A DNA stretch of 64,000 bases from a virus: the IMG/VR virus record IMGVR_UViG_3300010391_000021, positions 6,119 to 70,118 of that record; one strand, given 5' to 3'. The first letter of the stretch is position 1. Every line of letters begins with the position of its first letter. A program made the translations under genes and the position numbers. Positions 10,324 through 29,411 of this stretch are shown here, in pieces. The notes under the pieces were generated by a model that saw only the letters and a program-made list of their open reading frames with translations, was not told the origin of the DNA and did not search any database.

Positions 10324-10326
10324 ATT

Positions 10327-10989: not shown

Positions 10990-11114
10990 GGAGAATCGTG
11001 TTTTTAGTTTACATGGCAATTGGATTTGTATTGGGTGCCGCGTTTCCTGGCGTCATCCGCAAGATTCGCGAATACGCGCAAGCAAAGGCAGCAGACGCTA
11101 AAAAAAGACTGTAA

Positions 11115-12914
11115 ATGGGACAAGAGAAACTAACAGAGCAGTTCAAAAAGGAAGTCTTAACTCCGTGGTGGGCAAAAAACGCCTACCGAGTCAAAGAAGA
11201 ATATGGTTTTGATTTAGCGGAAGAAGGATTGAAATTGCGCTACAGAGCGCAAACAGACCTTTTTTGGCTCTGTAATATTCTCGGCAAAACGAAGTTACGC
11301 GGAAAAAGAAAGTGGAAAGATTACGAAATAGACACCCACCAAGAGATGGTGGATTTATTCGTATCTAAAGACCCGTCCTACCGTTCTTTCGAAGAATTTG
11401 CTGTAGCGGACAAGAAACCACATAACAGACTGTTGCTCGTTCCTCGTGGCGGATATAAAAGCACAATAGATATTGTTGATTGTGTTCAGTGGACGGTCTG
11501 CTTTCCAAATATCGCCATGCTGGTATTAACAGGCCGTCTTGATCTCGCTGTTAAATTTGTCGGCGAATATACCAAATATTTTACTTTGCAAGAAGACCGA
11601 ACTCCGAGAATAATGGACGACGGAAAAATAAGTCTTTTTCAAGTCCTATTTCCAGAACACCTGAGTACGGAAAATGAAACTAAACGGGATGAGTATACGA
11701 CTCCGGCCCGAAGAGCGGATATTAAAGAGCCGACAATATGGGCCGCAAGTATTGAGCAGAGTCTTGCAGGATTTCACTTTGACGTTCTGAAACTAGACGA
11801 TGTAGTTACAGAAGAAAATTCCAAAACACAAATCAGATTGCAAGACATCAATCGTCGTGTAAGCGTTGATGAAGCCATGCTACACCCCTACGGCTACTAC
11901 GATAAAATAGGGACCTGGTACGACATCAGCGATTTATACGGCATCACGCTCAAGAATGAGGAAGTTCTAAAAGCGGATGGAAGAGAACCAGAAACGCTAT
12001 CTTTAGTTCGGGCGGCTTTATGGTTGAAACCTGAAGCAATCGCAAAAAGTGTTACGGAAGATACCGCTAAAGAAGACGATTACATGATATGGTTTCCTGA
12101 AGGTTTGACATACGATTTCTTGATGTCAAAGAAACGGTCAAATCAAGAAACTTTTGCAATCAAGTATCTCAATAATCCTTTAGCCGCACATATAGCAAAA
12201 TTCTCCCGAGAATTAATGGTTTCTCGGACAGTAGATACTTTGCCCCAATCCGGTGTTGTATTCGAAGCGTGGGATTTGGGATACTCCGAGAAGAAATCGG
12301 CGTGCTATACGGTTGGCATCGCGGGAATGTTTACCAGCCAAGGTATTTACATTATTGACATGGAGCGGGGCCGATACGGAGAGTATGAACTGCCGGAAGT
12401 AATGGCAGCGTTTGCCGCGAAATGGAAGCCGCGCCGCGTAGCTGTAGAAGATTCGATGGGTGCTCGGTGGTTGAACACCGGGATTCGTCAAGCGCAGGAA
12501 AAGTTTAGAACGCACATTCCTTTTGAATTTGTTCCGCTCGGCAAGGGAACTAAGACAAACTCCAAGGAAGTAAAAGCAAAAGGCGCGGCAAATCTTCTGG
12601 GAAGCGGGCGGTTGTTTTTCTGGAAAGCAATGGCGGGGTTGGGTGAAATTTACAACGAACTTGAATCCTTCCCCAAAGGGGCGTATAAAGACATCGTTTG
12701 TTCGTTGTCTTTGCTCGTAAATCACTTCTCAAATTACGCAGATATTTCAGTATACACCCCGATCAGTATCAATGACCGGATGGATAGAGTAAAACACGAC
12801 ATGATCTACGGTTTGGGGGCGTTTGCTCCGAAAGTTCAAGACTCTACATTAATTGCTCTGCAAGGACCGAATGAGATGGATCGCGATCCTATAACAGAGG
12901 CAGGATTATTTTGA
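11115..12914 (+). CDS. terL: Terminase large subunit
   Basis: Walker A region LLLVPRGGYKST, Walker B LKLDD, RNase H-fold WDLGYS and FPKGAYKD; lies upstream of the portal. Confidence 0.88.
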   Translation: MGQEKLTEQFKKEVLTPWWAKNAYRVKEEYGFDLAEEGLKLRYRAQTDLFWLCNILGKTKLRGKRKWKDYEIDTHQEMVDLFVSKDPSYRSFEEFAVADKKPHNRLLLVPRGGYKSTIDIVDCVQWTVCFPNIAMLVLTGRLDLAVKFVGEYTKYFTLQEDRTPRIMDDGKISLFQVLFPEHLSTENETKRDEYTTPARRADIKEPTIWAASIEQSLAGFHFDVLKLDDVVTEENSKTQIRLQDINRRVSVDEAMLHPYGYYDKIGTWYDISDLYGITLKNEEVLKADGREPETLSLVRAALWLKPEAIAKSVTEDTAKEDDYMIWFPEGLTYDFLMSKKRSNQETFAIKYLNNPLAAHIAKFSRELMVSRTVDTLPQSGVVFEAWDLGYSEKKSACYTVGIAGMFTSQGIYIIDMERGRYGEYELPEVMAAFAAKWKPRRVAVEDSMGARWLNTGIRQAQEKFRTHIPFEFVPLGKGTKTNSKEVKAKGAANLLGSGRLFFWKAMAGLGEIYNELESFPKGAYKDIVCSLSLLVNHFSNYADISVYTPISINDRMDRVKHDMIYGLGAFAPKVQDSTLIALQGPNEMDRDPITEAGLF

Positions 12915-12943
12915 CTGTTCAGTTCTGAACAAGGAGATTCCAA

Positions 12944-13216
12944 ATGCCAGTTTCAACCGTTACACCGGCCAATATTATCAGCACGACCCGTACTGCGGCT
13001 ACAAATGCCGCAAGCAGCACAGCGACCCCGTATGATTCCGGAACAATCACAACTTGGGCGCTACCAGGAAAACCCGCGCAAAAACTCGTGGATGGAACCC
13101 AGAGTTATTCGACTCTAAAGGGTCAAGTATTTGCCGACTTCGCGAGTTCAAACATTCTCGCAACGGCGACTACTTCTCTTTCTACGCAAGAAGGCACTCC
13201 CCGCCAAAACGACTAA
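12944..13216 (+). CDS. Small Thr-rich putative virion protein
   Basis: AAGGAG RBS; 90 aa. Confidence 0.55.
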   Translation: MPVSTVTPANIISTTRTAATNAASSTATPYDSGTITTWALPGKPAQKLVDGTQSYSTLKGQVFADFASSNILATATTSLSTQEGTPRQND

Positions 13217-13485
13217 TGGAGCGCGATTCCAAAAGAGGCGAACGCTTGGCAGGGTGGACGCACTTCGCGTTCTCCGCTCTATACTTTCTGGCTCTTTTAT
13301 GGCATTTGAAATCCATTAAAGAGCATTGGTCAAGATGAAGCAAGTCTCGGCGTATACGAAGGACGAGAATGGCGAAGAAAGATTTTTCACTCGCTTATCT
13401 TGCGGGTGCGAATTTCCCGTTCCGCCTTCGGTGCTCTTTGAAAAAGACGTTCCCTGCCCGTTACATGAAGAACAAAGGTATCTAA

Positions 13486-15570
13486 ATGGCTCTGATTAAT
13501 CGAGATGGCAATCCGAACAAAGTCCTCGAAGGGACCGATTTCACTAATCAAGGTGAAACCAAGACCATTGAAGATGACTTAGCTCTTGTCGTGGGGTGTG
13601 CTGAAAAATCAGAATCTTGGATTAGTTCGAAACAATGGAACCTCTTATGGCGCGATGCGGACCTGCTCTTCCAAAGTCCGCGTCCCATGTCTGTTTACGA
13701 AAATACTTATGTATTAGAACCAAACGTCACCCGTTTCACCGTCGCCAAAGTAGTAAACGCTATCGTTCCCCAACTCTACAAAGGTCTTTTCTTTGAAGAC
13801 CCGCCAATGGTCTTACGCCCTCGTCCGGGGACTTCCCAAGAAATCACTGACGCCAAAACCGCTGTAATAGCTTTTCTTCTTGACGAATGCAATTTCAAAC
13901 GCGAAGTCAAGTGGGGGTTGGAGCAACTTGCCCATTTGGGAACTGGAATTTGGAAATGGGGAGTAGAGAGAGTAGAAAAAGAAACTCGTCGCCGTCTCAG
14001 CACTGAGATTTCGATTGAAGGAGTCGCGGGGCAAACAGAAAAAATAAGTCTTGACGAAGACCCCAAGATTGATATCAAGACCAAGACTGTTTGGAAGCCC
14101 TTCTTCGAATTCAGACCTCTTAGCCGCGTTCTTGTCGATCCAGGTCTAAAAGTCGGGGATATTCGCGAAGCTGGATATGTAATCGACGTTCGTTACATGG
14201 ATTTCTACCAGCTTAAAGACCTGAAAGACAACAACTCCAAAGACGGCAAAGCGATGGACGGATGGACTTGGGGCGAATATTATTCTGATGCAAAATTAAA
14301 AGAACTTTGGAATCCGCCCGTTGAGGGTTTGGAGACTCCCGGCCCGCTCCGTACCGATGTACAGACGCAAGTTACGGGCATTGTCCACCACGGCGAAGAG
14401 GACGTATACACCAACAGCGCAGACCCTCTCGCCAAGAAATTGGAAGTTCTGGAGTATTGGGATAAGCGCCGGAAAATTCTTGTTCTAAATCGTAGAAAAG
14501 CAATCTTTATCGGCGAGAATGGGTTCAAGAAAATCTGTTTCCTGTCCGCCAATTGGTGGAACCGTCCCAAAGCCTTTTATGGCATGGGCATTGGTCTGAC
14601 CGTTGGGCAAAACCAGCGTGTAGATCAGGGCACAATCAACAGTATTCTGAAGATTCTAAGTTTCGGCGTAAATCCTATTTATTTGCGGAGCCGGGATTCA
14701 AACTCTCCAACCCAGATGATCCGGACAGGAATCGGTAAGATTCTCACAGTTGATGGTGCGGCAACTGGCGCTTTCCACCTTCTTGAGACTCCGAAAGTCC
14801 CTGCCGAAACGTGGGCGGCATTACAGAATTCAGAAGCGAATACGGAATCGACTACTGGCGCGGATCAGGCTTTGGTGCAGGGATCGACCGCAGGCCCGCG
14901 CACGGGTATGGGGCGCTCGGCAGCCGGAGCAAACCATCTTGCGTCCGCATCCGCTACTCGTCTTGATGGGCCGTTAGACAATTTTATCGATCAGGTCTTT
15001 GTGCCGTTCCTTTATGTTCTGGACGATTTGGTATTCAACTACCTATCCGATCAGGAAATCAAGGACATTCTAGGAGAAGAACTTGGCAAAGAATATGTAG
15101 TAAAAATGCAGGAATACCACGATGCAAAAGTCATGTTCGAAGTCCTTGCCGGTTCGAGTCTTGCAGCGAAGCGCGTAATGGCACAGTCTTTGACCCTGAT
15201 TACTCAGATTCTACAGAATCCGGAGATTCAGACTTTCTTGGCCGAAGTACAAGGCAAATACATCGATTGGGAAGTCATCCTCGGTATGTGGCTCGAAGCT
15301 TCCGAATGGAAGGATCGTCAGGATGTTGTCAAACCGATGACTCCTGAAATGAAGGCGGCGTTGCAAGCAAAACAACAACAGCAAGCGACTTCTGCTTTAC
15401 AAACTCAGATGACTCTGAACGACCAGAAAGCGCAGCAAAAGTCGCAAATGGAGGATCAAGCGGCAGATAATCGAGTAAAGCGGGACATCGTTCGTCAAGC
15501 CATGAAGTCGCAGTCCATGAGTATGGCGGTTGAAGGCGCTCCGGCTGAACGCGGATTCGGGGATATTTAA
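13486..15570 (+). CDS. Portal protein (P22-like)
   Basis: 694 aa between terL and scaffold; GTGIWK, FYGMGIG motifs and a Gln-rich C-terminal coiled coil. Confidence 0.8.
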   Translation: MALINRDGNPNKVLEGTDFTNQGETKTIEDDLALVVGCAEKSESWISSKQWNLLWRDADLLFQSPRPMSVYENTYVLEPNVTRFTVAKVVNAIVPQLYKGLFFEDPPMVLRPRPGTSQEITDAKTAVIAFLLDECNFKREVKWGLEQLAHLGTGIWKWGVERVEKETRRRLSTEISIEGVAGQTEKISLDEDPKIDIKTKTVWKPFFEFRPLSRVLVDPGLKVGDIREAGYVIDVRYMDFYQLKDLKDNNSKDGKAMDGWTWGEYYSDAKLKELWNPPVEGLETPGPLRTDVQTQVTGIVHHGEEDVYTNSADPLAKKLEVLEYWDKRRKILVLNRRKAIFIGENGFKKICFLSANWWNRPKAFYGMGIGLTVGQNQRVDQGTINSILKILSFGVNPIYLRSRDSNSPTQMIRTGIGKILTVDGAATGAFHLLETPKVPAETWAALQNSEANTESTTGADQALVQGSTAGPRTGMGRSAAGANHLASASATRLDGPLDNFIDQVFVPFLYVLDDLVFNYLSDQEIKDILGEELGKEYVVKMQEYHDAKVMFEVLAGSSLAAKRVMAQSLTLITQILQNPEIQTFLAEVQGKYIDWEVILGMWLEASEWKDRQDVVKPMTPEMKAALQAKQQQQATSALQTQMTLNDQKAQQKSQMEDQAADNRVKRDIVRQAMKSQSMSMAVEGAPAERGFGDI

Positions 15571-16403
15571 TGAGCGGAGAAATGAAAGGTGTTGACGGAA
15601 CCGCCAAAAGTGGGTTCGTTCAAAACTCGGAAAATAAAGGTCCCAGAACTTGCGGCAATTGTGTATGGATGGGAATGGAGAGTTGTGGCAATGAATTAGT
15701 TATTCTCGATCCCGAAGTTCCCAAAAACGAAGATGGTAGAGCGCCCGTCGATAAAGACGATTGCTGTAACGGATTCCAATCCAAAGGCAACGCAATCATC
15801 TATGCAGTTCGTCACGGAAGAACACAAAACAACAAAGACAAGAAATTCCGGGGATGGATTGAAGTTCCGATTGATTCTCAAGGAGTCAAAGAAGGAAAAC
15901 TAGCCCGCAAATATTTAGAAGACAAGGGCATCAAAAGAGTGTTTTGTTCAGACATGGGGCGGGCGGTTGAAACTGCAAAACTTGTACTGCCGAGCAAGCG
16001 GGCGGAAAAAAATCCGAAACTTCGCCCTTGGGATGTTGGTATTTTCTCCGGCAAAGAAAGAGATGCCGCCCAAGAAATCTTCAATAAATTTATCGATAAT
16101 CCCGAAGTTCCCATTCCAGACGGAGAATCCTTAAAAGAATTCTCTGATCGGATGAAGAAAGAAATTACCAAATACATAAAGGAAGCGCAAGAAGACGGTT
16201 CTATCCTTTTAGTATTTCATAGTTCTAATTGCATACAGATGGAAAAGATCATCGAAGGCAAAGACGAATTGGGTCGTCCCGAAGATGTTGATAGGGTATT
16301 GCCCGGTGGAATTATGTGTGTTTTAGACCAAGGCGATGCGGGGTTGAAAGTAGAAGTTATTTTTGGATCACAACCGGAAAAGCCGGGAAATTACGGGAGT
16401 TAA
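15570..16403 (+). CDS. Histidine phosphatase (phosphoglycerate mutase family) with an N-terminal Cys-rich domain
   Basis: VRHG, SDMGRAVETA, GES and VFH motifs; N-terminal CGNC..C..CC. Confidence 0.85.
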   Translation: MSGEMKGVDGTAKSGFVQNSENKGPRTCGNCVWMGMESCGNELVILDPEVPKNEDGRAPVDKDDCCNGFQSKGNAIIYAVRHGRTQNNKDKKFRGWIEVPIDSQGVKEGKLARKYLEDKGIKRVFCSDMGRAVETAKLVLPSKRAEKNPKLRPWDVGIFSGKERDAAQEIFNKFIDNPEVPIPDGESLKEFSDRMKKEITKYIKEAQEDGSILLVFHSSNCIQMEKIIEGKDELGRPEDVDRVLPGGIMCVLDQGDAGLKVEVIFGSQPEKPGNYGS

Positions 16404-16409
16404 GAATCT

Positions 16410-16718
16410 ATGGTTGGGCCGGATTATAAAATTTCAGAAGCGGAACGAACCCACTTAGTTGGTCTCAGCACGCAGCCGGGTTTCCAAGTTCTGCTTAACA
16501 TTTGCGAAGCCACTGTCGAACAATTTAAAGTAGACATGATTAATGCCGACTGTACGAATACGGCGGAAGTTTTGTCGTAGCATAATTTGGCCAAAGCCGC
16601 TGCGATGTTTTGGGCGAGAGTAGCCAACCGAGTCAATACCGAGCAACAGATTTATCTCGGCCAAAAGCAATCTGCCGAGATTCAGCCGGATGTTACTGCT
16701 GAACTTTTTAGCAATTAA
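16410..16718 (+). pseudogene. Head-module gene (102 codons) interrupted by one in-frame TAG at 16578-16580
   Basis: Hand translation MVGPDYKISEAERTHLVGLSTQPGFQVLLNICE...EVLS*HNLAKAAAMFW...ELFSN fills the gap up to the scaffold gene. Confidence 0.6.
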
Positions 16719-16755
16719 AGACCCTAATCTATAACCATAATTGGAGATGTTATTT

Positions 16756-17625
16756 ATGCCTGAAGAAATTGTTCCAGCACCAGAAGTTGCGGTAGTTCCT
16801 GAACCGCCTAAAGAATTTCGATACGAATACCAGCCAAAGGATGAAAGCGGAAATCCGTTAGGCAATAAACAGGTCGTGATCGCGACTACGCCAGAAGAGG
16901 CGGTAGAAAAAATCGCGCAAATGCACCAAGAAGCGATCAAGTTTATTCGTAAACAGAGTCGCGACCTCCGTCTTGGAGTGGTGTTCAACGATGAAATCCC
17001 ACAAGACGCCCCTCGTGTCAAGGCAGGGCAGTACGAGATTGAACCCATTCCTTTGACCGCAGAAGAAAGATTAGAAGTAACTCAGAACATCAACGATCCA
17101 GAGAATTTTGAGAAAGCTGCGCGGCTGATTGTTCGAAGTCAGATTGGTGATCCAGACGCCGTTCGCGCAGTAGTTGGAGATCAGAAACGCAGAATCGCGG
17201 CGATTGACGCCCGCGAACAAGCAGAAGCTTTCGTCCGGTCAACTCCTGATTATTTTGTATGCCCGCAGAATTTTGAAACTATCGCCAACTGGATGATTAA
17301 AAATGATCTTGAGCCGGTTAAGGCAAACTTCAAACTTGCTTTCGAGGGTCTCAAAGAGTATTTGGTTTCGCGTCCGGTTGTGGAGCCTGTTGTTCCTGCT
17401 CCAGTTCCAACACCTGTTGCAGCGCCGGTTGCAGAAACGCCTGCTGCGGTTGCTTCTGAATCGAAACGTCCCGTATCATCGGGACTGACCCGCGAGAATT
17501 CTTCGGACAGCGGCCCCGTATCCAAAAAAGGATACACCCCCGCCGAGATCGATAAGATGTCGGCAGATGAATACAAGCAGAAGGTTTTAGTGCCGGAATT
17601 CAGAGCGAGTCGGCAGAAGGCGTAA
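16756..17625 (+). CDS. Capsid scaffolding protein
   Basis: Acidic helical protein with a Pro/Ala linker and C-terminal IDKMSADEYK, upstream of the MCP; GGAG RBS. Confidence 0.7.
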   Translation: MPEEIVPAPEVAVVPEPPKEFRYEYQPKDESGNPLGNKQVVIATTPEEAVEKIAQMHQEAIKFIRKQSRDLRLGVVFNDEIPQDAPRVKAGQYEIEPIPLTAEERLEVTQNINDPENFEKAARLIVRSQIGDPDAVRAVVGDQKRRIAAIDAREQAEAFVRSTPDYFVCPQNFETIANWMIKNDLEPVKANFKLAFEGLKEYLVSRPVVEPVVPAPVPTPVAAPVAETPAAVASESKRPVSSGLTRENSSDSGPVSKKGYTPAEIDKMSADEYKQKVLVPEFRASRQKA

Positions 17626-18029
17626 TGATTCGGCGGTACGAATCTCGCGACTTCGAAGATGTTGACTTCTTGCAACGTGATTTCTATCTTCGCCCCGCAA
17701 CTCAAGAAGAATTGCGGGGCAAGTTAGAAAACCCCTCGTGGGTAGCGGACGAAGATGGTGTTATTGGCTGCTTGATAACTTGTCCAGATGCGGACAAAAC
17801 TCTGATCTGGAGTGTAATCGTTGCCCGCCCCTGTCGCGGGAAAGGAATCGGCTCGGCGTTATTAGAAGCGGCAGAATCGTTCTATTATGGAACTAAATTG
17901 ACGCTCTATGTAGAACCAACCAATCCTGCCAAGAGTCTGTATGAGAAACGCGGATATCGAGCCGCGCAACTAATAAAAGGATTTTACGGCAAAGGGTATG
18001 ACGCCGTAGAGATGTACAAAATTTGCTAA
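17625..18029 (+). CDS. GNAT (RimI-like) acetyltransferase
   Basis: RGKGIGSALL and NPAKSLYEKRGY motifs. Confidence 0.88.
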   Translation: MIRRYESRDFEDVDFLQRDFYLRPATQEELRGKLENPSWVADEDGVIGCLITCPDADKTLIWSVIVARPCRGKGIGSALLEAAESFYYGTKLTLYVEPTNPAKSLYEKRGYRAAQLIKGFYGKGYDAVEMYKIC

Positions 18030-18170
18030 GAACGCGGATTACGTTCGAGGCCCCAACGTTTGCGTGAGGGATTCACTTCGGGTTCTCAGCCCAAAGCCTC
18101 AACCTATCTGATCGGATTATCAGAGCGGACGGCGCATAAGAGCAGCTTCGGCTGAACTTAATTAAGAAGG
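18030..18170 (+). promoter_or_regulatory. Structured 5' leader of the major capsid gene
   Basis: Hairpins gaacg-CGGATTA-cgttc, gtga-GGGAT-tcac, ctgat-CGGATT-atcag and cagc-TTCG-gctg just before the AAGG RBS. Confidence 0.5.
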
Positions 18171-18176
18171 TAAACT

Positions 18177-20739
18177 ATGGCTTTTTCACCGGCTAAATGG
18201 TAAGCTGGCCGGATTAAATCTTGCCAAATCGGTGAACATCTGGTATAATTAATACTAGACAATACCGAGGAAACCTTATGAACAATACAAACAAATGGTC
18301 GTATCTGGCCGGAGTATTCGATGGAGAGGGGTCTGTAGGAATTGCGATTCATAAACTCAATTCTTCAACCCATCTTGTTATTTCTCTTTCAAGCACCAAT
18401 ATCGAACTGATGGAATGGTGCATAAAACATTTTGGGGGTGTCTACTATACGCAAAGTCGGGGAACTCACCGAATTGAATATAAATGGATGCCAAAAGGAA
18501 AGAAAAACCGAGAAGTTTTTTTTCTCGGAATTCTTCCATATCTCATCATTAAGAGAAAACAAGTTTTATTGGCCTTGGAATATGATAGGCTAGGTTCTCA
18601 CAATCCCGAAGCACGAACAAAAATGCGAGAACAGATGCTCTCTTTCAACAAGGGTTCTGTAGAGACTAATACGCAAGACGCGGCTCCCGCCGTGATGATC
18701 GAGTCCGAACTCATTGGGGACAATGAGAGTGCACCGGATGTGAATCCGGGTTTTGATTGGGCCGCTTTGCAGCGACTCAGACAAATTTAGCCTAAACACC
18801 GTTAGGCAATAACCAGTCAAATCTGCCTCAGTCTACTGTGCGCTATTATGACAAAAAGTTCCGCGAGAACTTGAAGGCACAGACCCCCTTCGTCGCTTGC
18901 TCCGAACGTTTGGACCTACCGATGAAGAGTGGCAACCAGTATAACATGTATTTGTACGTTCCTCTGGCCGCGAATACTTCGCAGACCACGGAAGGTACTG
19001 TAGGTAGTTCCGTTTCGGTTAGCGTTCTGAATACTTCGGCCACGATTGGCGAATACGCAGACTACGCCAACTTCTCTTCGCTGTCCCTCGCAACTGCGAT
19101 TGACAACACCGTAGAGAACGTTGCCCGCGAAATGGCGTATCGTCTGGGTGAATCTCTGTCCGCTCTCGTCCGCGCAACTGCTGACGGCGCGAATACGGTT
19201 GACTCAAGCGTTCGCACTTTGCTATCCGCGACAAGCACCACGAGTTTCACAACTCTGTCGCTGACCTACATCCGTAACGCCGTCCAGAGTTTGGCCGGTC
19301 GTTCGGTTCGCCCGTTCGATGAGGCTTCCAAAGCGTATGCTGGCGTTATCCATTTCTAAAAGGGTGGATATAAAACTTGACTAAATCGGTGGACATCTAT
19401 ATAATATAGACAATACCGAGGTAAGGTCCAATGTTTCAAATAGACAAGACAAAATGCTCGTATCTGGGCGGCTTGGTTGATGGTGAGGGCAATATTTGCA
19501 TCTGGCGTACCGAATCCCGTGCGCATGATTATAAAGTCTCTGGAAAGACCTATGGGTCCTTCAATTTGAGGCTGCATATTGCAAACACCAGCTTAACACT
19601 CATGAAATGGTTAGTCTCGAATTTTGGCGGTGTTTATCACTGCAAAAGAGAAGCCACAGATAAGCATGCAACTGCTTATGAATGGCGTCCAAAAGGCGAG
19701 GGAAACACAAAACGTACTCTTCTGGCGATTTTGCCTTATCTCGTGATTAAACGAGAGCAAGCAATTCTGGCACTCAAATATATTGATCTGCCACAACAAG
19801 CGCCCAAAGAACGTGAACTAATCTACCAACGCATGAGACAGCTAAACCAAAAAGGACCCAAAACCGTAACGACTAATACGTCAAGCCCTGATGAAAGTCA
19901 GGTGAAGATAGAGTCTGATCTCATAGGCGACTATGAGTGTGACCCTGCGGTGACGCAGGACTCCTAAACAAAAATACCTTTCGCCCTTGGCGATGTGCTG
20001 GCAGACAACAGCAACGACAGCCCTATCGACATTTTGAAGCGCACCCCGCAAGGTTATGCTCGTTTGGATGAAATTATCTCAACCGACCTAACCGAAGTCA
20101 TCAACTTCCCGACTTCCGGCGTAAGTTTCTTCCAGTCGAACCTCGTAACCACGACTGCCAATTATAATGACGGAACGCACGGCGCTGTTACTGGCCTGAC
20201 CGCGCTTCGGACTTATATCTTCGGCAGAGATGGCATCTACAGCATCAACCTTGGTGCTCAGGGTGACACGGGCTTTGGCGACGGCGAATGGCGCAATATT
20301 CGCTGCAATATCGTTCAGAACGCTGAACCGAGCGTCGCTGATCCTAGCGGGCTGATCCCAGGTTGGACTTCGTATCGTGTACATTTTACGACCTCGCTTG
20401 GGCCAGACACCACAATTCGTATGAGACAGCTAGATGCCGCCAGCGCAATAAGTTAATTGTTTTCAGCCAATTACAACTGAATACATTTTACTATTACGCA
20501 CGGAAACCTAATGCGAATTTAAAACTTGACCTGATTGACTTGAAACCTGAAATGGCAACAAGGCGGAACCCGAAAGGGACCGTGAGAGACTAAGCGGTCG
20601 AGCGCCGAAAGGTGATGCGATAGTCCGAACATACGGGAACAAAACCGTATGAGGTTGGCAGAAATGACCAATCTCAACAGCGTAAGTTGTTGATAACAGG
20701 GCGATTAGGGAAATCGACGCAGCCAGCGCAATTTCGTAA
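18177..20739 (+). CDS. Major capsid protein (N4-gp56-like), spliced: join(18177..18194,18805..19353,19977..20420,20704..20739), 348 aa
   Basis: The exons join in frame: MAFSPA|GNNQSNLPQ...YAGVIH|PFALGDVL...DTTIR|IREIDAASAIS; IGEYADY and IHP motifs; follows the scaffold. Confidence 0.85.
18221..18249 (+). promoter_or_regulatory. sigma70-type promoter inside the intron 1 core
   Basis: TTGCCA-17nt-TATAAT, then GAGG and the ATG at 18278. Confidence 0.75.
18278..18790 (+). CDS. Single-motif LAGLIDADG homing endonuclease (intron 1)
   Basis: WSYLAGVFDGEGSV, FGG and ILPYLIIKRKQ motifs. Confidence 0.92.
   Translation: MNNTNKWSYLAGVFDGEGSVGIAIHKLNSSTHLVISLSSTNIELMEWCIKHFGGVYYTQSRGTHRIEYKWMPKGKKNREVFFLGILPYLIIKRKQVLLALEYDRLGSHNPEARTKMREQMLSFNKGSVETNTQDAAPAVMIESELIGDNESAPDVNPGFDWAALQRLRQI
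19377..19405 (+). promoter_or_regulatory. sigma70-type promoter inside the intron 2 core
   Basis: TTGACT-17nt-TATAAT, then GAGG/AAGG and the ATG at 19431. Confidence 0.78.
19431..19967 (+). CDS. Single-motif LAGLIDADG homing endonuclease (intron 2)
   Basis: SYLGGLVDGEGNI, NFGG and ILPYLVIKREQA motifs. Confidence 0.92.
   Translation: MFQIDKTKCSYLGGLVDGEGNICIWRTESRAHDYKVSGKTYGSFNLRLHIANTSLTLMKWLVSNFGGVYHCKREATDKHATAYEWRPKGEGNTKRTLLAILPYLVIKREQAILALKYIDLPQQAPKERELIYQRMRQLNQKGPKTVTTNTSSPDESQVKIESDLIGDYECDPAVTQDS
20421..20703 (+). mobile_element. Group I intron 3 in the MCP (283 nt, no endonuclease), with a copy of the last exon in its P1 loop
   Basis: P1 aattcgU/Gcgaatt (20513-20519); P10 cctaat/attagg; P3 cttgacc/ggtcgag; P7 GACTA/TAGTC; P9 catacgg/ccgtatg; terminal G20703. 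Confidence 0.88.
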
Positions 20740-20747
20740 GATTTTGC

Positions 20748-20776
20748 TTGACACTGCGTTAGTTCTTTGATACACT
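20748..20776 (+). promoter_or_regulatory. sigma70-type promoter
   Basis: TTGACA-17nt-TACACT. Confidence 0.7.
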
Positions 20777-20856
20777 ATTGTTGATGCATCAAATTGGAAA
20801 AGAGGCGGGTGCCTTCATCATCCGCCTCCGATCCGATTCCCTATGAAGGAGGGAAC

Positions 20857-20973
20857 ATGATAGGTGAAAAATATTTTAGATATGAAGTTTTGATGTTTGC
20901 TTGGAAAGAAAAACAACAAAGATATTATTTATGTGTTTGTGAATGCGGCGCGTTGCGATGCGCGGCGGTTTGA
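20857..20973 (+). pseudogene. 38-codon N-terminal remnant of an HNH/AP2-type endonuclease
   Basis: MIGEKYFRYEVL...YYLCVCECG resembles the G..FGRL.V...C.CDCG start of these genes; strong GGAGG RBS. Confidence 0.55.
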
Positions 20974-21230
20974 TATACTAATAATTGTATAAATTGCGAG
21001 GCAAAATGGTAAACGATACTACAACTGGCGAGAACATCTCAATCAACCCGAACTACGTTCCACAACAGCAGCATGTTTGTCCCAACTGCGGATTCTGCCC
21101 ATGTTGCGGACGAAGGGCTGTTCAGCCCTATCCAGTATTTCAACCGCCGGGTTACTTCCTTTTCCTCCGGAACTCAAAACATTAATTAATTGCGCGGCAG
21201 GACGACACTAACCTTATCTAAGGAAACAAC

Positions 21231-21611
21231 ATGGCAATCACCCAGATTCTCGTTGCTTCGCCCGCAAATGAAAACATCTTCACCGATACCGCAATGGGCG
21301 CGACAATTGACGCCGTAAAAGCGTCTTCCGCTACCGTGTATTATGTTCAGGTGGATAATTCTGCAAATGGCGCGGCAAGTTATGTAAAACTGTATAATGT
21401 CGCCAGCGGCAGCGTTGTGGTTGGAACCACGGTTCCCGATCAAGTCATCTTTGTTCCAGGAAATGCCAGAGTGACCGAGGTTTATACTACGGTTGCGGCC
21501 CCCGGCAAAGCGTTTGGAACCGCCCTCAGCGCGGCTTGCACGACCGCTGGAGGCACGGCGGGAAACACAGGTCCGAGTTCTTCAGTTGTTGTTACGATTG
21601 TGTACGCATAA
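21231..21611 (+). CDS. Putative virion (capsid decoration-type) protein
   Basis: AAGGA RBS; T/A/V-rich beta protein downstream of the MCP. Confidence 0.6.
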   Translation: MAITQILVASPANENIFTDTAMGATIDAVKASSATVYYVQVDNSANGAASYVKLYNVASGSVVVGTTVPDQVIFVPGNARVTEVYTTVAAPGKAFGTALSAACTTAGGTAGNTGPSSSVVVTIVYA

Positions 21612-21868
21612 GAGGCGAAATTGCGCGGCAGGCCACAAGGAAGCAAGAACAAATCGAAGTGTTCAGTTCCGGACAATGTTCACGTATCGTGTACAAACTC
21701 CCCGCTTGAACAACATGTCGGCAAGGTAGTCGGCTACTATTTAGAAGGAGAGCGGGCCGGGTATTTGCTATCCTACACGGATACAAAAGCCAAGGTCAAG
21801 CCTATTGCCGCGTATAAAGGCGTCTCCCCGCATTCTGTAACCGTCCCGATTGGGCACTTGACGATACT

Positions 21869-22075
21869 ATGACTCCTCTGGACAAATTCTTCTTTGGATT
21901 CAAGATTGTTACACTGTACTTAGGCGGGGCGCTCGGAATTGTCATTACGGCGTTGTCCATCTTAGCCTTTGGAACTCCGCTCGGATTCATCATGCTATTG
22001 CTCGGAATCGGATGTATGTGGTTTTCGTCCAATCTCAGTAAGACTCTAGCCGAAGAAATCAAAAAACAAGTTTAG
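21869..22075 (+). CDS. Small membrane protein
   Basis: Two hydrophobic segments. Confidence 0.55.
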   Translation: MTPLDKFFFGFKIVTLYLGGALGIVITALSILAFGTPLGFIMLLLGIGCMWFSSNLSKTLAEEIKKQV

Positions 22076-22573
22076 TGTCCCTAAAGAACACGCGGTCGGA
22101 TTACCAACTGTTCAGACGGACAACATGCGGGTGGTAGTTGATGGCCAGAACACCTTCCGCGTCGGCTCTGTAGCGACCGATCACCGTCTATAGATGTCCG
22201 ATTTCTTTTCGGGAGGCAACATGTGGTATCAGACTTGTCCGTGTTGCCTTCGTTTTCTCTGTAAAAAATCTCTAAAAGAATCTATTCGTTGTTTGTGCGG
22301 GTTTTTATGGCCGTAACTATTCAAGATTTTATAAAATCATTGCGGCGCAATCCCGATCCTCTAACAACCTTCGTCCCCGAAGACAATCCCCAAATTACTC
22401 TTGATTTTTGTATTTGGCTGCATCGCAACTTCAATGAACTGGTGAAAGAAAATGAGACGATTAAATTGGACAGCGGTTTTTGAGCGCATTATTGCTGGTG
22501 TTATTAGCGGCGTGGTAAGTGGAATTATCGTAGGTGCGATTGTATTTTTCTCGCGGTTCCATTGGGGGGTAAA

Positions 22574-23161
22574 ATGACTAAACCCCGTTGGGAGTCTTAT
22601 GCTGATGAAATTATAGGCAAAGACACGCCCGAGATGGAAGCCGCAATCGCTGAATATGCGAAAAATAGATACGAGGGAAAAAGTTCTTCGCAAAACGAAG
22701 AAGAACTTGCCCGATGGAAAGAAGGAAATTCTGAAATAGCTAAAGAATACCAATGGGTAAAGCCGGAAGAATACGCTGACGAAGCGGCGCGGGTTGGTCG
22801 CGTAATGAGTCACGAAGAGTTTATTAGAATTTTGAGAAATAAACTCCACCTTACGTGCTTTTATCGAGAGATGAATCATCCCCAAAAGATTGCATTATGG
22901 GCAACGAAAAGAGAAGGATTGGTCCCAGAAAGCGTTGGTTGGGTAAAGCGCGGACTCACCACCGAACTTTCTATCATGCGTTTTGACGATCACGGGGTTC
23001 CTGTGGATGAGAAGTTTAGAGGATGGCGCAGCGTTTTGATGAATTTAGTTATGAAAGGTTTTCTAAAAGAACATGATGTTCGTAAAGTATTCGGACGAGC
23101 TAAAGGGTCTTGTAGTGAAAAATACAATTCTTTTATGCAGCAATTTAGGACGGTAGTATGA
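22574..23161 (+). CDS. Hypothetical protein
   Basis: GGGGG RBS before the ATG; 195 aa. Confidence 0.6.
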   Translation: MTKPRWESYADEIIGKDTPEMEAAIAEYAKNRYEGKSSSQNEEELARWKEGNSEIAKEYQWVKPEEYADEAARVGRVMSHEEFIRILRNKLHLTCFYREMNHPQKIALWATKREGLVPESVGWVKRGLTTELSIMRFDDHGVPVDEKFRGWRSVLMNLVMKGFLKEHDVRKVFGRAKGSCSEKYNSFMQQFRTVV

Positions 23162-23616
23162 GACCCGGACGGCCTATAAAAGATGGATATAAAATTTGTT
23201 ACAAGTGTAATCAAAATCTTCCTGTATCAGAATACTATAAAGCCTCAAGACGAAAAGAAGGTTTAGAGGATTGGTGTAAAAAGTGCACCAAAGATCGCTC
23301 AAAAAGTTACTATAAAAAAAACAAAAGATGTCTAAAGAACTCTCAGCGTTTGCGTATATACGGAATCACAGAATCAGAATATAAGAAGATTTTTGTATTA
23401 CAAGGAGAATGTTGTGCCATTTGCTGGACAACGAACCCTAATAGTAAAGACTGGCACATAGATCACGATCATATAACCAATAAAGTTAGAGGTATTCTTT
23501 GCAGCGATTGTAACCGTCTATTGGGCGGAGCACGAGACAATCCAAACATTCTTAAACTCGGTATCAAATATTTAATGAAACCAGGAATCGTTGACATAGA
23601 GAGAGTTGTTGCATAA
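23158..23616 (+). CDS. Endonuclease VII-like HNH endonuclease
   Basis: CAIC...IDHDHITNKVRGILCSDCN. Confidence 0.9.
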   Translation: MRPGRPIKDGYKICYKCNQNLPVSEYYKASRRKEGLEDWCKKCTKDRSKSYYKKNKRCLKNSQRLRIYGITESEYKKIFVLQGECCAICWTTNPNSKDWHIDHDHITNKVRGILCSDCNRLLGGARDNPNILKLGIKYLMKPGIVDIERVVA

Positions 23617-23936
23617 TGACTTTACTATACTTAGTCGCGCTAATGCTGGATGGAATTGCGGGGTTTTTTGACGCGCATATTACCGACATCGGCATTCGCA
23701 AAGGTGTCGCCGTAGAAGGCAACGAATTTATGACGAAGTTGTTCAGAACTGTACGACCCAAGTTCTGGCAAATCTCAGTTTATAACTTTGGCCAGACGGC
23801 CTTACTTTCGGTTCCGGGAGTATTCGGTATTGTTTATAACAACAACCCCTTGATTTTCCTCAGCGCCGTCATGTTGTCTACAGACGCCGCAGGACACGTA
23901 AAAGCATTCTTTGCGTGGAGAAAGTTGGGAGTCTAA
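23616..23936 (+). CDS. Membrane protein
   Basis: Hydrophobic helices with a D..T...G..EGN motif. Confidence 0.55.
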   Translation: MTLLYLVALMLDGIAGFFDAHITDIGIRKGVAVEGNEFMTKLFRTVRPKFWQISVYNFGQTALLSVPGVFGIVYNNNPLIFLSAVMLSTDAAGHVKAFFAWRKLGV

Positions 23937-24506
23937 TTGATCGTTTATAAGATAACGAATCTATTTTATGGGACTTCATATATCGGAAAAACTGTTCACT
24001 CTTTAGAAAGAAGATGGATTCAACACCTAAGCGACGCTATTGCCGGAAGTGAATTTTACCTACATCGGGCAATAAGAAAATATGGGCCGGATTCCTTCTC
24101 TAAGGAAATTATTTGCGAATGTGATAGTCAAGAACAGATGTCTGAAATTGAAAAATTTTGTATTATAGCCTTTGATACGAAAGCTCCTAGTGGCTACAAC
24201 ATGACAGATGGAGGAGATGGTCAATCTGGTCGGAGACATTCTCAAAAATCAAGAGATAAAATAGGCGAGGCTCAACGCGGAAGAAAACTACCAGAAGAGT
24301 GGAGAAATAAAATTAGTAAAGCATTAACTGGAATTGTTCGATCTTCCAAATTTTGTAAAGATTTAAGTAATCGATGGAAAGGTAAAACTAAGACGGAAGA
24401 ACAAAGAAAAAAGATAAGCGAAACTTTAAAAGGACGAAAGCTGACAGAAGAACACAGAAAAAACATTGCAGCCGCCCAATTAGGAAAAAAGAGACCAAGA
24501 AAATGA
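23937..24506 (+). CDS. GIY-YIG homing endonuclease with NUMOD3 repeats
   Basis: IVYKITN...YIGKT, GYNMTDGG and H/TEE.R.KIS repeats. Confidence 0.9.
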   Translation: MIVYKITNLFYGTSYIGKTVHSLERRWIQHLSDAIAGSEFYLHRAIRKYGPDSFSKEIICECDSQEQMSEIEKFCIIAFDTKAPSGYNMTDGGDGQSGRRHSQKSRDKIGEAQRGRKLPEEWRNKISKALTGIVRSSKFCKDLSNRWKGKTKTEEQRKKISETLKGRKLTEEHRKNIAAAQLGKKRPRK

Positions 24507-24766
24507 CATATCAAACTCAGGATAGTAGATTGGCTGCGTTTTTTCTTATTAATGGAATTCCCTTCGAGGGAACTGAAACACGCTGCCAAGAGGAAGACGA
24601 CAGAGTTCTCTTGAGATTTCGGATTGACGATGAAGAAAAATTCGCGCAATTAAAAAGAGACTTTTTTGAAGATGGATTAGTTCCCGCATTAGCTTTTGCA
24701 AATTCCATGAAATCAGTTATGCATTTAATTCGCGAGGCAAGGGAACTTGCCCGTGACGCCCGATAA
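24503..24766 (+). CDS. Hypothetical protein
   Basis: Coupled ORF beginning YQTQDSRLAAF. Confidence 0.6.
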   Translation: MTYQTQDSRLAAFFLINGIPFEGTETRCQEEDDRVLLRFRIDDEEKFAQLKRDFFEDGLVPALAFANSMKSVMHLIREARELARDAR

Positions 24767-24799
24767 CGAACCTTACCTATACCATAATTGGAGAACACC

Positions 24800-25402
24800 A
24801 TGTCAGACGACTTCAAAGTAGCAAAAAAGAAAACCTCGCAAGAATTGATTAACGCGAATCTTGACGATCTCACCAATGAAGAATTAGATCGTAGAACGGC
24901 AGTTATCCGCGCAAGCAAGGAAGAAGCCGATCTTCAGGACATTAAAGAACGCTTGGCTGATCGCGATAATAAACGTACCATGAGAGGGGATGGGTTTCGT
25001 TCTCGCGGCAGAGAGCTTAATAAGACGCAGCGAGATCAGGAACTTCATCAATCGAAGTGCAGTCATCGTAAAGGCGGTCGTGGGCTGGAAGCCATTCAAA
25101 TTGGTGGAAATGCCGGGGATTACGCGGTGATCCGTCATTTGCTTCCGTGGAATGTTTGGTATCAACGTTGCCAGCGGTGCGGGAAGACTTGGAAACCGCC
25201 CAACGATCTAGATTATAAAATGGACACTCCAGAAGGCAAAGAAGCCTTCGAAGCGGCCAAAAAAGTTTATGCAGACGCTTTAGCTTGGCCGACCGACAAC
25301 ATACCAAGTACGGGGATCACATTTCAACATCATAGCGATGACGCAGACACGTCCGCTAGAAAGTTTGTACATGAAACCGTAAAGAATGTAAATCTTCGAT
25401 AA
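24800..25402 (+). CDS. Hypothetical protein with CxH/CxxC zinc motif
   Basis: GGAG RBS; CSHRKGG and CQRC. Confidence 0.6.
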   Translation: MSDDFKVAKKKTSQELINANLDDLTNEELDRRTAVIRASKEEADLQDIKERLADRDNKRTMRGDGFRSRGRELNKTQRDQELHQSKCSHRKGGRGLEAIQIGGNAGDYAVIRHLLPWNVWYQRCQRCGKTWKPPNDLDYKMDTPEGKEAFEAAKKVYADALAWPTDNIPSTGITFQHHSDDADTSARKFVHETVKNVNLR

Positions 25403-25650
25403 TGACCAATTATTTGAAATCAATAGCGAGTCTCGTCACAGCCGGGACAGTTTATTACTTGACCAAAGTGAGTTGGGATAAATCAAAAAACAGATTTGTA
25501 GTTCATGTAAAGAACAAACATCTAGGTCGTTTCGATAACGAAATAAAGGCTGCCCTATTTTATGATGTAGCTGCAAGAGCCTATTTTGGAGAGTTTGCTA
25601 AAACAAATTTCAATCTTTGTCCTTTGACTGTGGGAGTTTCCGATGCCTAA
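25402..25650 (+). CDS. Stand-alone AP2 DNA-binding domain (probable HNH-AP2 remnant)
   Basis: HLGRFDNEIKAALFYDVAARAYFGEFAKTNF. Confidence 0.8.
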   Translation: MTNYLKSIASLVTAGTVYYLTKVSWDKSKNRFVVHVKNKHLGRFDNEIKAALFYDVAARAYFGEFAKTNFNLCPLTVGVSDA

Positions 25651-26083
25651 TACGCAGCTTTTCCCTCAGTCAACTTTCCCAATTGCGGGAGACGTTACTT
25701 CAACCCCCGGAAACCCTTTTGTCGTTACCACGGGTATACAGAATACGGGCGTAGTCGCGACAAAACCCACAGACGGGCAAGTTTATGTTTATGTTGCTGA
25801 AGTAGACAAATGGGTTCCTGCCGATCCAGTGGTTTCGGGGCCAAACACCGTAGGAACCGCTTCTACCGCCCCGCCCGTTCAAGTTGGCGGGATTGACGAA
25901 GGCAATTTAGTTCGCGAATTGCGAATAGATACTTATGGCGGGATACGCGCCCCGCGTATTGAAGAAAAATTGGATATTCTTGTTTTAGAAATCCGAGCGT
26001 TAAAAGCAGCAGTTATCAATTTAGACAAAACGGCCAACGATCAAGATTTTGTGGCTGACCAATTTCAAAGTGAGGTAGTTTAA
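25643..26083 (+). CDS. Putative virion protein
   Basis: Fibre-like motif PTDGQVYVY....WVP. Confidence 0.55.
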   Translation: MPNTQLFPQSTFPIAGDVTSTPGNPFVVTTGIQNTGVVATKPTDGQVYVYVAEVDKWVPADPVVSGPNTVGTASTAPPVQVGGIDEGNLVRELRIDTYGGIRAPRIEEKLDILVLEIRALKAAVINLDKTANDQDFVADQFQSEVV

Positions 26084-26754
26084 TGTTTACCCAAGTACAA
26101 GTCGGCCCGCAAACCGTTAACGACGGTTCTACTCCCATCGCCCGTGGTGGTAAAGGCGGCGACGTTATCGTTTCCGAACTTCATGGTCGGTTTTATGAGC
26201 AGACTTATCGCGGAAACATTTATTCCATCGGTTGTGCGCTTACCGCGCTTTCCACTGCTACTTTCCTATTGACCTCTTCTGCACAACCCATTGTTGGCAT
26301 ATGGAACCCCCCGACTTCCACTGTAAATTTGGTTCCTTTGCAAGCGATGTTGGTGGACGAAATAAACAACGTCACGTCTGTGGCTCCTGGTGCGTTTGTG
26401 TGGGCGTCATCCGTTGGTAATACCGCCTTGACCGCTGGCTTGGCTCCATTTAATCGAAAAACGCTAGCATCCTCCGGTTCTCAGGCAAAAGCCTTTTCTC
26501 TTTCAACGGCCAGTCTCCTGACCGGATTGACAAACAACGTGGTAGTTTTTGAACCTGCGGAATTCAATACCGCATCTGGTCTGCTGACTACTACGGTTGC
26601 GGCAGCCACACCCACACCTTCTGTAAGTGGAGTTCAGAATTTCGACGGCAGCTTGATTGTTCCTCCGGGCGGCATCCTTGTTCTCTTAAATACCGTCTCT
26701 TCCGTCACACACAGCGTTGCTTCAAGAATCATGTGGGAAGAAGTCGCATTGTAA
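26083..26754 (+). CDS. Putative virion protein
   Basis: GAGG RBS; T/A/S-rich, ending IVPPGG...WEE. Confidence 0.6.
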   Translation: MFTQVQVGPQTVNDGSTPIARGGKGGDVIVSELHGRFYEQTYRGNIYSIGCALTALSTATFLLTSSAQPIVGIWNPPTSTVNLVPLQAMLVDEINNVTSVAPGAFVWASSVGNTALTAGLAPFNRKTLASSGSQAKAFSLSTASLLTGLTNNVVVFEPAEFNTASGLLTTTVAAATPTPSVSGVQNFDGSLIVPPGGILVLLNTVSSVTHSVASRIMWEEVAL

Positions 26755-26755
26755 T

Positions 26756-28081: not shown

Positions 28082-28310
28082 ATGCTACGGCAAACCTCAA
28101 AAATCTACATAACCGTAACATCGTCCGCATCTGGACACCAGCAAGCCGCGCTTATCGCAAGCGGAAAACTAATAGAAACGATACTTTCTTTGGGGCACTT
28201 ATCTGGAACCCTTGGCGGAGGGGCACAAAATCCTCCTAAGATTGTCGCAACTTTGTTCAGTTCCGGACTTTTAAATAGCATCGATTCTATTGGCAGTTTT
28301 TAAGGAATAC

Positions 28311-29387: not shown

Positions 29388-29411
29388 ATTTTGAATAAAT
29401 AGGAGAACAAA

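Follow-up and report, generated by a model that had tools for sequence, protein, structure and literature searches.

Sigma70-like promoter motifs within the core helices of nuclease-bearing group I introns in a phage capsid gene

The intron nucleases of phage T4 are transcribed from promoters internal to their introns, and for I-TevI the relevant passages of the same paper describe autorepression through an operator overlapping the promoter in the intron (PMC2988022). A group I intron in a phage capsid gene is known from mycobacteriophage LittleE and, as cited there, from lactococcal phage Tuc2009; the sections of that paper used here report that the LittleE capsid intron is spliced during late expression, and its main text contains no occurrence of the word “promoter” (Pope et al, 2013; PMC3706429). 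A literature search conducted mostly outside subscription journals returned no description of a sigma70 promoter located in the core helices of a group I intron. Promoters within introns are already known from T4; the novelty of the locus described here lies in the class of the putative promoter, in its position within core helices and in how it recurs among many uncultured phages.

The locus lies in a 64,000-nt stretch of phage DNA (the window), in which three group I introns interrupt the major capsid gene; all features described below are on the plus strand. Exon 1 (18177..18194, encoding MAFSPA) is colinear with the uninterrupted major head protein of Tunturi_3, a relative from which the host is judged to be probably an acidobacterium. 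It is followed by intron 1 (18195..18804, 610 nt), exon 2 (18805..19353; phrog_1357 major head protein, E 1.4e-15; 82.6% identity to Tunturi_3), intron 2 (19354..19976, 623 nt), exon 3 (19977..20420, again colinear with Tunturi_3), intron 3 (20421..20703, 283 nt) and exon 4 (20704..20739), which encodes IREIDAASAIS and a stop codon and is the same as the Tunturi_3 C-terminus. A LAGLIDADG-type open reading frame (ORF) lies in the P6 loop of both intron 1 and intron 2; intron 3 has no nuclease ORF, and the capsid reading frame runs on through its first 36 nt. DNA contigs contain intron-less alleles for all three positions, in run X4 for intron 1, in run X3 for intron 2 (joining 19352 to 19980) and in both runs for intron 3, and the intron junctions are consistent with these alleles and with the uninterrupted homologue. 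The locus thus resembles LittleE and Tuc2009 in combining a group I intron in the major capsid gene with an ORF for an apparently I-CreI-like LAGLIDADG nuclease, but here a single capsid gene holds three introns, and the ORFs of two lie on the sense strand, whereas LittleE, as described in the sections cited, has its nuclease on the opposite strand and an intron that ends in G (PMC3706429).

No match in the window reaches the gathering score of the Rfam group I family RF00028 (50 bits): intron 1 reaches 20.4 bits and intron 2 25.2 bits, and intron 3 gives no Rfam match at E ≤ 10. Scores also vary among 11 ORF-less relatives with the P4/P4' pattern, four of which pass RF00028 at the pattern site (L217, 72.7; L246, 64.3; L216, 59.7; L012, 56.1), while three fall under gathering (L193, 47.5; L174, 39.0; L161, 34.2) and four (L200, L237, L186, L215) have no match at E ≤ 0.01. 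The two ORF-bearing relatives scored here, L005 (33.2) and L040 (31.7), are both under gathering, and a large ORF insert probably lowers the RF00028 score.

Core helices were assigned by hand and by comparison with homologues. The 5' splice sites are marked by P1 U.G pairs (U18194.G18207, U19353.G19364 and U20420.G20513 in introns 1, 2 and 3), and the 3' exons can form P10 pairings of 3, 5 and 6 bp, respectively; in intron 3, P1 has 7 bp (20414-20420 with 20513-20519) and P10 joins 20704-20709 to 20507-20512. P3 pairs 18219-18224 with 18673-18678 in intron 1 and 19376-19381 with 19880-19885 in intron 2, with six of six pairs in each. P5 is formed by 18239-18246 with 18252-18259 and by 19396-19401 with 19405-19410, the P4' strand occupies 18264-18268 and 19415-19419, and P7 and J8/7 motifs were found in the core. 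In all 41 homologues whose 3' core was located, P3/P3' retains five or six of six pairs with many different sequences, which indicates covariation, and folding predicts P5 as a single hairpin in 47/47 ORF-bearing and 24/24 ORF-less introns.

Introns 1 and 2 terminate in A, and intron 3 in the canonical G. Uninterrupted capsid genes, with which the locus is colinear, define these A ends, and the intron-less allele also defines that of intron 2. A known intron that likewise lacks the terminal G is the hexacoral mitochondrial ND5-717 group I intron, whose exons are correctly ligated in vivo according to the part of the source cited; the same part describes a giant mitochondrial intron with strictly vertical inheritance that is removed by back-splicing (PMC6545197), whereas introns 1 and 2 are mobile phage introns known from sequence. 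If the A-terminated introns splice, the exception known from coral mitochondria would extend to mobile phage introns.

The nuclease ORF of intron 1 (18278..18790, 170 aa) spans P7, P3', P8, P7' and P9, and that of intron 2 (19431..19967, 178 aa) spans the 3' ribozyme core. Each protein has a single LAGLIDADG motif at residues 9-20 (YLAGVFDGEG and YLGGLVDGEG). The two score 20.4 and 21.4 bits against PF00961, below the cut-off of 23.1, and match phrog_5046 (E 2e-16 and 9e-21), which PHROGs labels “HNH endonuclease”; the PDB matches are I-MsoI (E 3.5e-4) and I-CreI (E 0.06). Introns 1 and 2 are paralogous, so that the promoter-like sites described next do not represent two independent events; their nucleases, however, are only 37% identical to each other.

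In intron 1, a -35-like hexamer, TTGCCA (18221..18226), is followed by an extended -10, TGgTATAAT (18241..18249; TG at 18241-18242, TATAAT at 18244-18249), and in intron 2 TTGACT (19377..19382) is followed by TATAAT (19400..19405). Both sites have a 17-nt spacer and match the consensus at 11 of 12 positions. From the helix coordinates, the -35-like hexamers span the downstream portion of the P3 5' strand together with J3/4, and TATAAT sits in the P5 stem and loop, reaching into the 3' strand in intron 2. The spacer is preserved by offsetting lengths: relative to intron 2, intron 1 is one base shorter after TTG and one base longer before TATAAT. Sigma70 transcripts usually start 7-8 nt past the -10, which would place the start of the nuclease mRNAs at 18256..18257 and 19412..19413, with leaders of about 21 and 19 nt. 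The GAGG ribosome-binding sites (RBSs) at 18267..18270 and 19418..19421 each share the last two nucleotides of P4'. Intron 3 keeps TTGACC (20526-20531), and its short P5 (CCUGAAAUGG) lacks TATAAT. An earlier note on this DNA had proposed that the P3 5' strand doubles as a -35 with TATAAT in P5 17 nt further on, that GAGG overlaps the 3' strand of P4, and that intron 3 retains the TTG hexamer alone; each of these statements agrees with the sequence, and its description of ribozyme helices, promoter-like hexamers and RBS on common DNA is correct as anatomy.

Both sites stand out within the window. They are the top two of 31 promoter-like sites in 10000-29999, and with a weight matrix of E. coli frequencies, which may not be the consensus of the host, they rank second and third among the sigma70-like sites on both strands of the 64 kb; twenty block shuffles of the window gave two sites of equal strength in total. 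They are also the only matches to TTG-N20-TATAAT in the window, where 0.54 are expected. At least two such matches occurred in 14 of 100 shuffles, and the total of 31 is not enriched over shuffles of 10000-29999 (mean 25.5, sd 5.4). These last two figures favor a reading in which an A+U-rich P5 and a P3 set by the ribozyme mimic a promoter by chance, and the likeness has been inherited unused in one ORF-bearing clade.

A survey of homologous introns bears on this reading. Homologues were collected from public contigs by pattern scans anchored only on P4/P4', so that the sampling was blind to P3 and P5. Among the 139 unique matches, 47 introns have a LAGLIDADG ORF, L035 is counted with them, and 24 introns are ORF-less, leaving 67 others; the compared set consists of 72 unique introns, 48 ORF-bearing and 24 ORF-less. 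When each P5 segment was shuffled 2000 times, the -10 motif was stronger than expected from composition at p ≤ 0.01 in 23/48 ORF-bearing and 0/24 ORF-less introns (28/48 and 0/24 at p ≤ 0.05; Fisher p = 9e-6 for ORF-bearing versus ORF-less, with kinship ignored). By -10 score the counts are 26/48 and 1/24, and the one ORF-less case is wrongly placed. The motif is thus restricted to ORF-bearing relatives: a -10 in P5 tracks the presence of an ORF, as the earlier note had proposed should be checked, and the ORF-less relatives, whose sharing of the motif it had named as evidence against the idea, lack it. That composition-preserving shuffles separate the two classes argues against chance mimicry.

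Conservation within the motif points the same way. In the 27 best sites, T (23/27) and G (22/27) precede the hexamer at -3 and -2, position -1 carries 0.06 bits, and the hexamer has an invariant T, A and T, although the same letters were used for selection; the consensus is TGnTAnAnT. Of these sites, 18 have a 17-nt spacer and nine an 18-nt spacer; the -10 starts 8-10 nt past the P4 5' strand in 27/27, and in 22/27 it ends 22-37 nt before the start codon. A TTG in P3 is present in 24/26 introns with a -10 and in 10/22 without one (Fisher 5e-4); it also occurs in 7/24 ORF-less introns and is therefore partly a feature of the ribozyme. The motif and its spacing are kept although P5 differs widely in both length and sequence, over long branches and across nuclease lineages diverged to 37% identity, which is difficult to reconcile with an unused inheritance. 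Three ORF-less introns retain an ORF-type 3' core, and the -10 is decayed in two of them (L215, TCTATT; L186, TATAGG) and absent from the third (L161); decay in derivatives that have no ORF likewise counts against chance and descent.

The motif is scattered among deep lineages of the nuclease tree, on which its distribution needs 11 changes, at least four of them on well-supported branches; this breadth speaks for a promoter. By score, 22 of the 48 ORF-bearing relatives lack the -10 though they too lie in capsid genes, so a promoter would be dispensable for persistence of the intron. With relatedness controlled, on a tree from a 57-column segment of the 3' core, three independent ORF-gain/ORF-loss pairs were available on supported branches, too few for a sign test; the motif changed in the same direction as the ORF in 1.2 of them on average and never in the opposite one, and the association was not significant (p 0.25-1). 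This result is in line with chance and descent. Set against the shuffles, the conserved layout and the decayed motifs, we still regard that reading as unlikely.

Motifs such as RENLKA and QSLAGR, assessed by eye, place both promoter-bearing and promoter-less introns in capsid genes, so that this set offers no contrast between late and early genes. PHROGs profiles were run on 37 of the 49 exon references. Of the 26 that came from ORF-bearing introns, four match phrog_1357 major head protein, and the remaining 22, mostly short, have no PHROGs match.

Comparable sites occur in other intron families. L299/L302 carry TTGACA-17-TATAAT from P5'/J5/4 to P6, just upstream of the ORF; L285a has TAGACA-18-TGgTATAAT and L285b, within a 5' hairpin, TTGAAT-17-TGgTATAAT, both also just upstream of the ORF. 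In L366, TTGACA-17-TGgTATAAT lies within P8, and a 158-aa ORF begins 59 nt further on. In a sister family, 7 of 13 introns with a LAGLIDADG ORF have a site scoring at least 10 upstream of it; the ORF-less introns of that family were searched over a longer region, which makes a comparison by ORF presence unfair, and we therefore use individual cases. These families suggest a rule that would hold for phage group I introns in general, which we offer as a tentative proposal that could well fail: an ORF would bring with it a host-type promoter (sigma70, often with an extended -10) threaded through the helix that precedes it, namely P3/P5 for ORFs in the P6 loop, P5'/P6 in the sister family and P8 where the ORF lies beyond P9. 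Identical nucleotides would thereby be jointly selected as catalytic RNA, promoter, RBS and coding 3' core. Many members of the clade, introns 1 and 2 included, have A in place of the supposedly universal terminal G and yet must splice to yield a working capsid protein.

A second explanation for the conserved P5 is that it acts as RNA, as a site for an intron protein of maturase type or as a tertiary contact, and that its likeness to a promoter is incidental. The motif does lie within a helix of the catalytic core, and the CUG...CAG base of P5 is kept on both strands in motif-bearing introns. Organellar LAGLIDADG proteins that act as maturases are known and provide a precedent. What an RNA-level role accounts for poorly is the geometry: the linear distance of the hexamer from P4 is fixed in all 27 best sites, whereas its location in P5 shifts from intron to intron between 5' stem, loop and 3' strand. 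A free position -1 between conserved TG and TA is more readily explained by contacts with polymerase than by a helix, the -10 co-occurs with a TTG 17-18 nt upstream, and the other families carry full consensus promoters in different helices. Taken together, these observations make a purely RNA-level function improbable. That the sites bind a protein for some other purpose, as a nuclease operator or as a promoter mainly for another product such as downstream capsid exon transcripts, is very unlikely: a T4 operator does overlap the intron promoter (PMC2988022, in the passages cited), and transcripts from the sites would continue into exon 2 or exon 3, but the P3-P5 region shows by eye no likeness to exon junction sequences, the distance between -10 and start codon fits a dedicated nuclease mRNA, and the downstream exons alone could not encode the capsid protein.

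We therefore consider the sites in introns 1 and 2 to be probable internal sigma70 promoters, a variant of the T4 arrangement. More broadly, it appears fairly likely, as far as the sequence can tell, that these are mobile group I introns whose core from P3 to P6 doubles in DNA as an expression cassette for their own LAGLIDADG homing endonuclease. In the proposed mechanism, TTG in P3 and J3/4 would serve as the -35 and TGnTAnAnT in P5 as the extended -10, and host RNA polymerase with the primary sigma factor would initiate within the intron, in the P5 3' strand or J5/4, a nuclease mRNA with a short leader. GAGG in P4'/P6 would be its RBS, with the AUG about 20 nt past the predicted start. An mRNA initiated in this way would lack P1-P5 and so could not fold into the ribozyme, and production of the nuclease could proceed even when the capsid gene is not transcribed. 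Early nuclease expression independent of late capsid transcription, as the earlier note had suggested, may follow from this arrangement.

The predicted arrangement shares several features with T4: a same-strand promoter would lie within a self-splicing intron just upstream of a homing-endonuclease ORF, the nuclease transcript would be nested in that of the host gene and timed differently, and the RBS is located in RNA structure. In the T4 case, phage middle and late promoters lie in early or middle genes, whereas here host sigma70-like sites lie in a late capsid gene, so that the timing logic would be reversed. Unlike in T4, the -35, the -10, the predicted start and the RBS fall inside the core helices P3, P5 and P4'/P6, and the nucleases are of the LAGLIDADG type rather than GIY-YIG and HNH. 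Unmasking of the RBS from a hairpin has been demonstrated for T4 in the passages cited (PMC2988022). Here the RBS overlaps P4' and P6 in the ribozyme fold, and a comparison of leaders initiated at the promoter with leaders initiated at P3, by local partition-function folding with P6 and tertiary structure left out, gave no gain in RBS accessibility from starting at the promoter (median unpaired probability 0.27 versus 0.27 for the longer transcripts; higher in 15/27).

If the sites are used, a selfish intron would have solved a problem of timing: its nuclease must cut the intron-less capsid gene of a co-infecting phage and so has to be made before late capsid transcription. The solution would pack promoter, start and RBS into about 50 nt that also fold as P3-P4-P5-P6, making these introns a dense natural example of overlapping DNA-level and RNA-level codes. 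If true, it would also be of practical use as a rule by which intron ORFs in phage metagenomes can be annotated.

The window belongs to a 70-kb uncultured virus record. Of the named phages, Tunturiibacter phage Tunturi_3, whose host is an acidobacterium, is the nearest relative; its uninterrupted major head protein gene encodes a protein 82.6% identical to the window ORF at 18838-19356. Alignment of this protein to the window, with P1 and P10 read by hand, divides the capsid gene into four exons (18177-18194, 18805-19353, 19977-20420 and 20704-20739) and three group I introns: intron 1 (18195-18804), intron 2 (19354-19976) and intron 3 (20421-20703). The junctions were confirmed by DNA contigs from other samples (sequencing runs X3 and X4; run X1, probably the source of the window DNA, is not independent). 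One X4 contig links 18195 to 18806, one X3 contig links 19352 to 19980 with four other nucleotides in between, and contigs of both runs continue past 20417 into intron-less C-terminal coding sequence. Since other samples contain intron-less alleles, the introns are carried by some close relatives and missing from others, which is expected of mobile elements. Rfam group I scores are weak in the window (25.2 bits for intron 2 and 20.4 bits for intron 1, against a gathering threshold of 50), and the search of the window gave no Rfam match for intron 3; among ORF-less relatives with the same P4 and P4' sequences, four pass the gathering threshold and seven others do not.

A GNAT acetyltransferase gene (17625-18029) immediately precedes the capsid gene, and Tunturi_3 is annotated with this gene order too. 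Directly at each insertion site (18189-18195; 19349-19353 with 19977-19979; 20415-20420 with 20704-20712), the intron-less alleles carry changes relative to the window that are mostly synonymous, such as CAC CCC versus CAT/CCT and AGG ATT CGA versus CGT/ATT AGG; where intron 1 is inserted, Ser in the intron-less allele corresponds to Gly in the predicted spliced product of the window. These differences are compatible with nuclease target-site divergence. The capsid gene family is a hot spot for introns: of 80 homologous loci (L258-L337), 68 lack a gap of intron size, and introns are present in the other 12 and in the window, at about nine distinct positions, close to Tunturi_3 protein residues 6, 23, 187, 189, 212, 270, 296, 319 and 332. 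One X3 contig matches intron 1 as far as 18220, where it changes to another 5' core, which is of the sister type (P4 UCGGGG) and lacks TTG and TATAAT; this suggests that the insertion site holds a recombinant or an alternative intron. One viral contig (L174:443-1990) has six tandem Rfam group I intron matches in about 1.6 kb, three of them above gathering.

The earlier note had proposed that the ribozyme cores of introns 1 and 2 double as sigma70 promoters and ribosome-binding sites (RBS), and every sequence element it listed was found in place. TTGCCA at 18221 and TTGACT at 19377 occupy the 3' part of the P3 5' strand and J3/4, TATAAT follows in the P5 hairpin at 18244 and 19400 after a spacer of exactly 17 nt, and the GAGG RBS covers the final two bases of P4'. 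Intron 1 also has a TG two bases upstream of the hexamer, that is, an extended -10. In the ORF-less intron 3, P3 contains TTGACC, and the short P5 lacks TATAAT. The elements of introns 1 and 2 are probably internal sigma70-type promoters for the intron nucleases. The two sites are the top two of 31 promoter-like sites in 20 kb, a total that is not above chance for that stretch, and they rank second and third window-wide by a weight matrix of E. coli frequencies, which may not be the host's consensus. With the same matrix, twenty shuffled windows gave two sites in all of equal strength; two exact occurrences of TTG-N20-TATAAT are not rare by themselves, being reached in 14 of 100 shuffles. Two further strong sigma70-like sites with TG are present in the window: TTGACA-17-TACACT on the plus strand (20748-20776), 9 nt past the capsid stop codon, and TTGACA-17-TATACT on the minus strand (56620-56648), the best site in the window, within a 331-aa minus-strand ORF.

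Public contigs were scanned for the P4 5' strand and J5/4-P4' alone (AAATCGGTG, 8-38 nt, CAATACCGA), with P3 and P5 unconstrained. The scan yielded at least 121 loci in viral contigs, and a narrower pattern 61 loci in viral and 70 in metagenome contigs, with 2 loci in genome contigs; after removal of duplicates, at least 139 distinct matches remained. Among the matches listed, 47 introns have a LAGLIDADG ORF starting at most 45 nt from P4' (48 with locus L035, whose motif the regular expression missed), 24 introns are ORF-less, 14 of them in the same GGAAA subclade, and the remaining 67 are either introns carrying an ORF of another kind or chance matches in coding DNA. A best P3-to-P4' score of at least 10.8 is reached by 27 of the 47 ORF-bearing introns listed, one of which (L057) is not of the P3/P5 type, and by one of the 24 ORF-less introns listed (L215), which has a poor -10. 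The comparison favours the suggestion that a -10 in P5 tracks ORF presence: when each intron's own P5 segment was shuffled 2000 times, sites with p<=0.01 were found only in ORF-bearing introns (23/48, versus 0/24 ORF-less, among the matches listed). A weakness is that the motif is missing from about half of the relatives with an ORF, though they too are in capsid genes. The two classes differ (Fisher 9e-6, Mann-Whitney 7e-5) when introns are treated as independent, which they are not; in a phylogeny-controlled test, which had too few independent contrasts, the association did not reach significance.

The motif in P5 is more likely a promoter than a feature of the helix. The 27 best sites share an extended -10 signature, with TG at -3/-2 in 22-23 of 27, an uninformative -1 and the hexamer T-A-t-a-a/c-T, which starts 8-10 nt past the P4 5' strand in 27/27. 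Because P5 varies in length (13-33 nt), the hexamer lies in the 5' stem, in the loop or reaches the 3' strand, depending on the intron; a fixed linear and a variable structural register match the prediction for a DNA signal. The -10 goes together with TTG at the -35 position, which is present in 24 of 26 introns with a -10 and in 10 of 22 without; TTG in P3 is in part also a ribozyme feature, being found in 7 of the 24 ORF-less introns. On the long-branched nuclease tree, the motif is scattered (11 state changes, at least 4 on well-supported branches) and has therefore been kept or regained across large divergence. Three introns (L215, L186 and L161) are ORF-less, yet have a 3' core of the ORF-bearing type; the first two contain broken versions of the motif and L161 none.

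In other intron families of the same capsid genes, the consensus promoters are placed in different helices, in each case shortly before the ORF of that intron. These comprise a perfect TTGACA-17-TATAAT from the P5 3' strand to P6 (L299/L302), TAGACA-18-TGgTATAAT (L285a), TTGAAT-17-TGgTATAAT in a 5' hairpin (L285b) and a perfect TTGACA-17-TGgTATAAT inside P8, about 73-100 nt past P4' (L366), where a 158-aa ORF starts beyond P9, 59 nt downstream of the -10.

The ORFs of introns 1 and 2 encode single-motif LAGLIDADG-type proteins of 170 and 178 aa, which are 37% identical to each other, score slightly under the Pfam PF00961 cut-off, match phrog_5046 (E 2e-16 and 9e-21) and have I-MsoI and I-CreI as best solved-structure matches. 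Both ORFs run across P7, P3', P8, J8/7, P7' and P9 (18660-18790 and 19865-19967), so bases of the ribozyme core code for a conserved C-terminal peptide, K-I-E-S-D/E-L-x-G-D. Another 300-400 nt of ORF are located in the P8 loop of six relatives (L021, L041, L052, L152, L171 and L223).

Introns 1 and 2 end in A (18804 and 19976) instead of the canonical G, as judged by colinearity with uninterrupted capsid genes and, for intron 2, also by an intron-less allele. A terminal A is shared by relatives at three further capsid sites (L324, L051, L240, L299/L302 and L032) and by L057 and L179 at the site of intron 2; L021 has the same tail, with its 3' exon not identified. The clade tail, C[CT]UAAAC plus 7 nt, ends in A in some relatives and in G in others, and the G-binding pair in P7 is retained. 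Coral mitochondria offer a case of a group I intron that lacks the terminal G and is nonetheless spliced (PMC6545197). The first 36 nt of intron 3 (20421-20456) extend the capsid frame by MRQLDAASAIS before a stop, a peptide that closely resembles IREIDAASAIS from exon 4, so a full-length capsid protein could also be made from unspliced RNA.

Nuclease promoters inside introns have a precedent in phage T4, where middle and late promoters within the introns drive transcription of the three intron endonucleases, an RBS hairpin forms solely in transcripts started upstream, and the I-TevI promoter is repressed by I-TevI itself (PMC2988022). The arrangement proposed for the window introns resembles this system in outline, but differs from it in promoter class, in a timing logic that would be reversed and in having the whole cassette inside core helices. 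Simple folding gave no sign that the RBS is freed in promoter-initiated mRNA. A capsid-gene intron with a LAGLIDADG gene, there antisense, is reported for mycobacteriophage LittleE (PMC3706429); the literature searched, with incomplete coverage, did not describe any sigma70 promoter within the core helices of group I introns. Judging by promoter class only, the nucleases may be expressed early and independently of capsid transcription.
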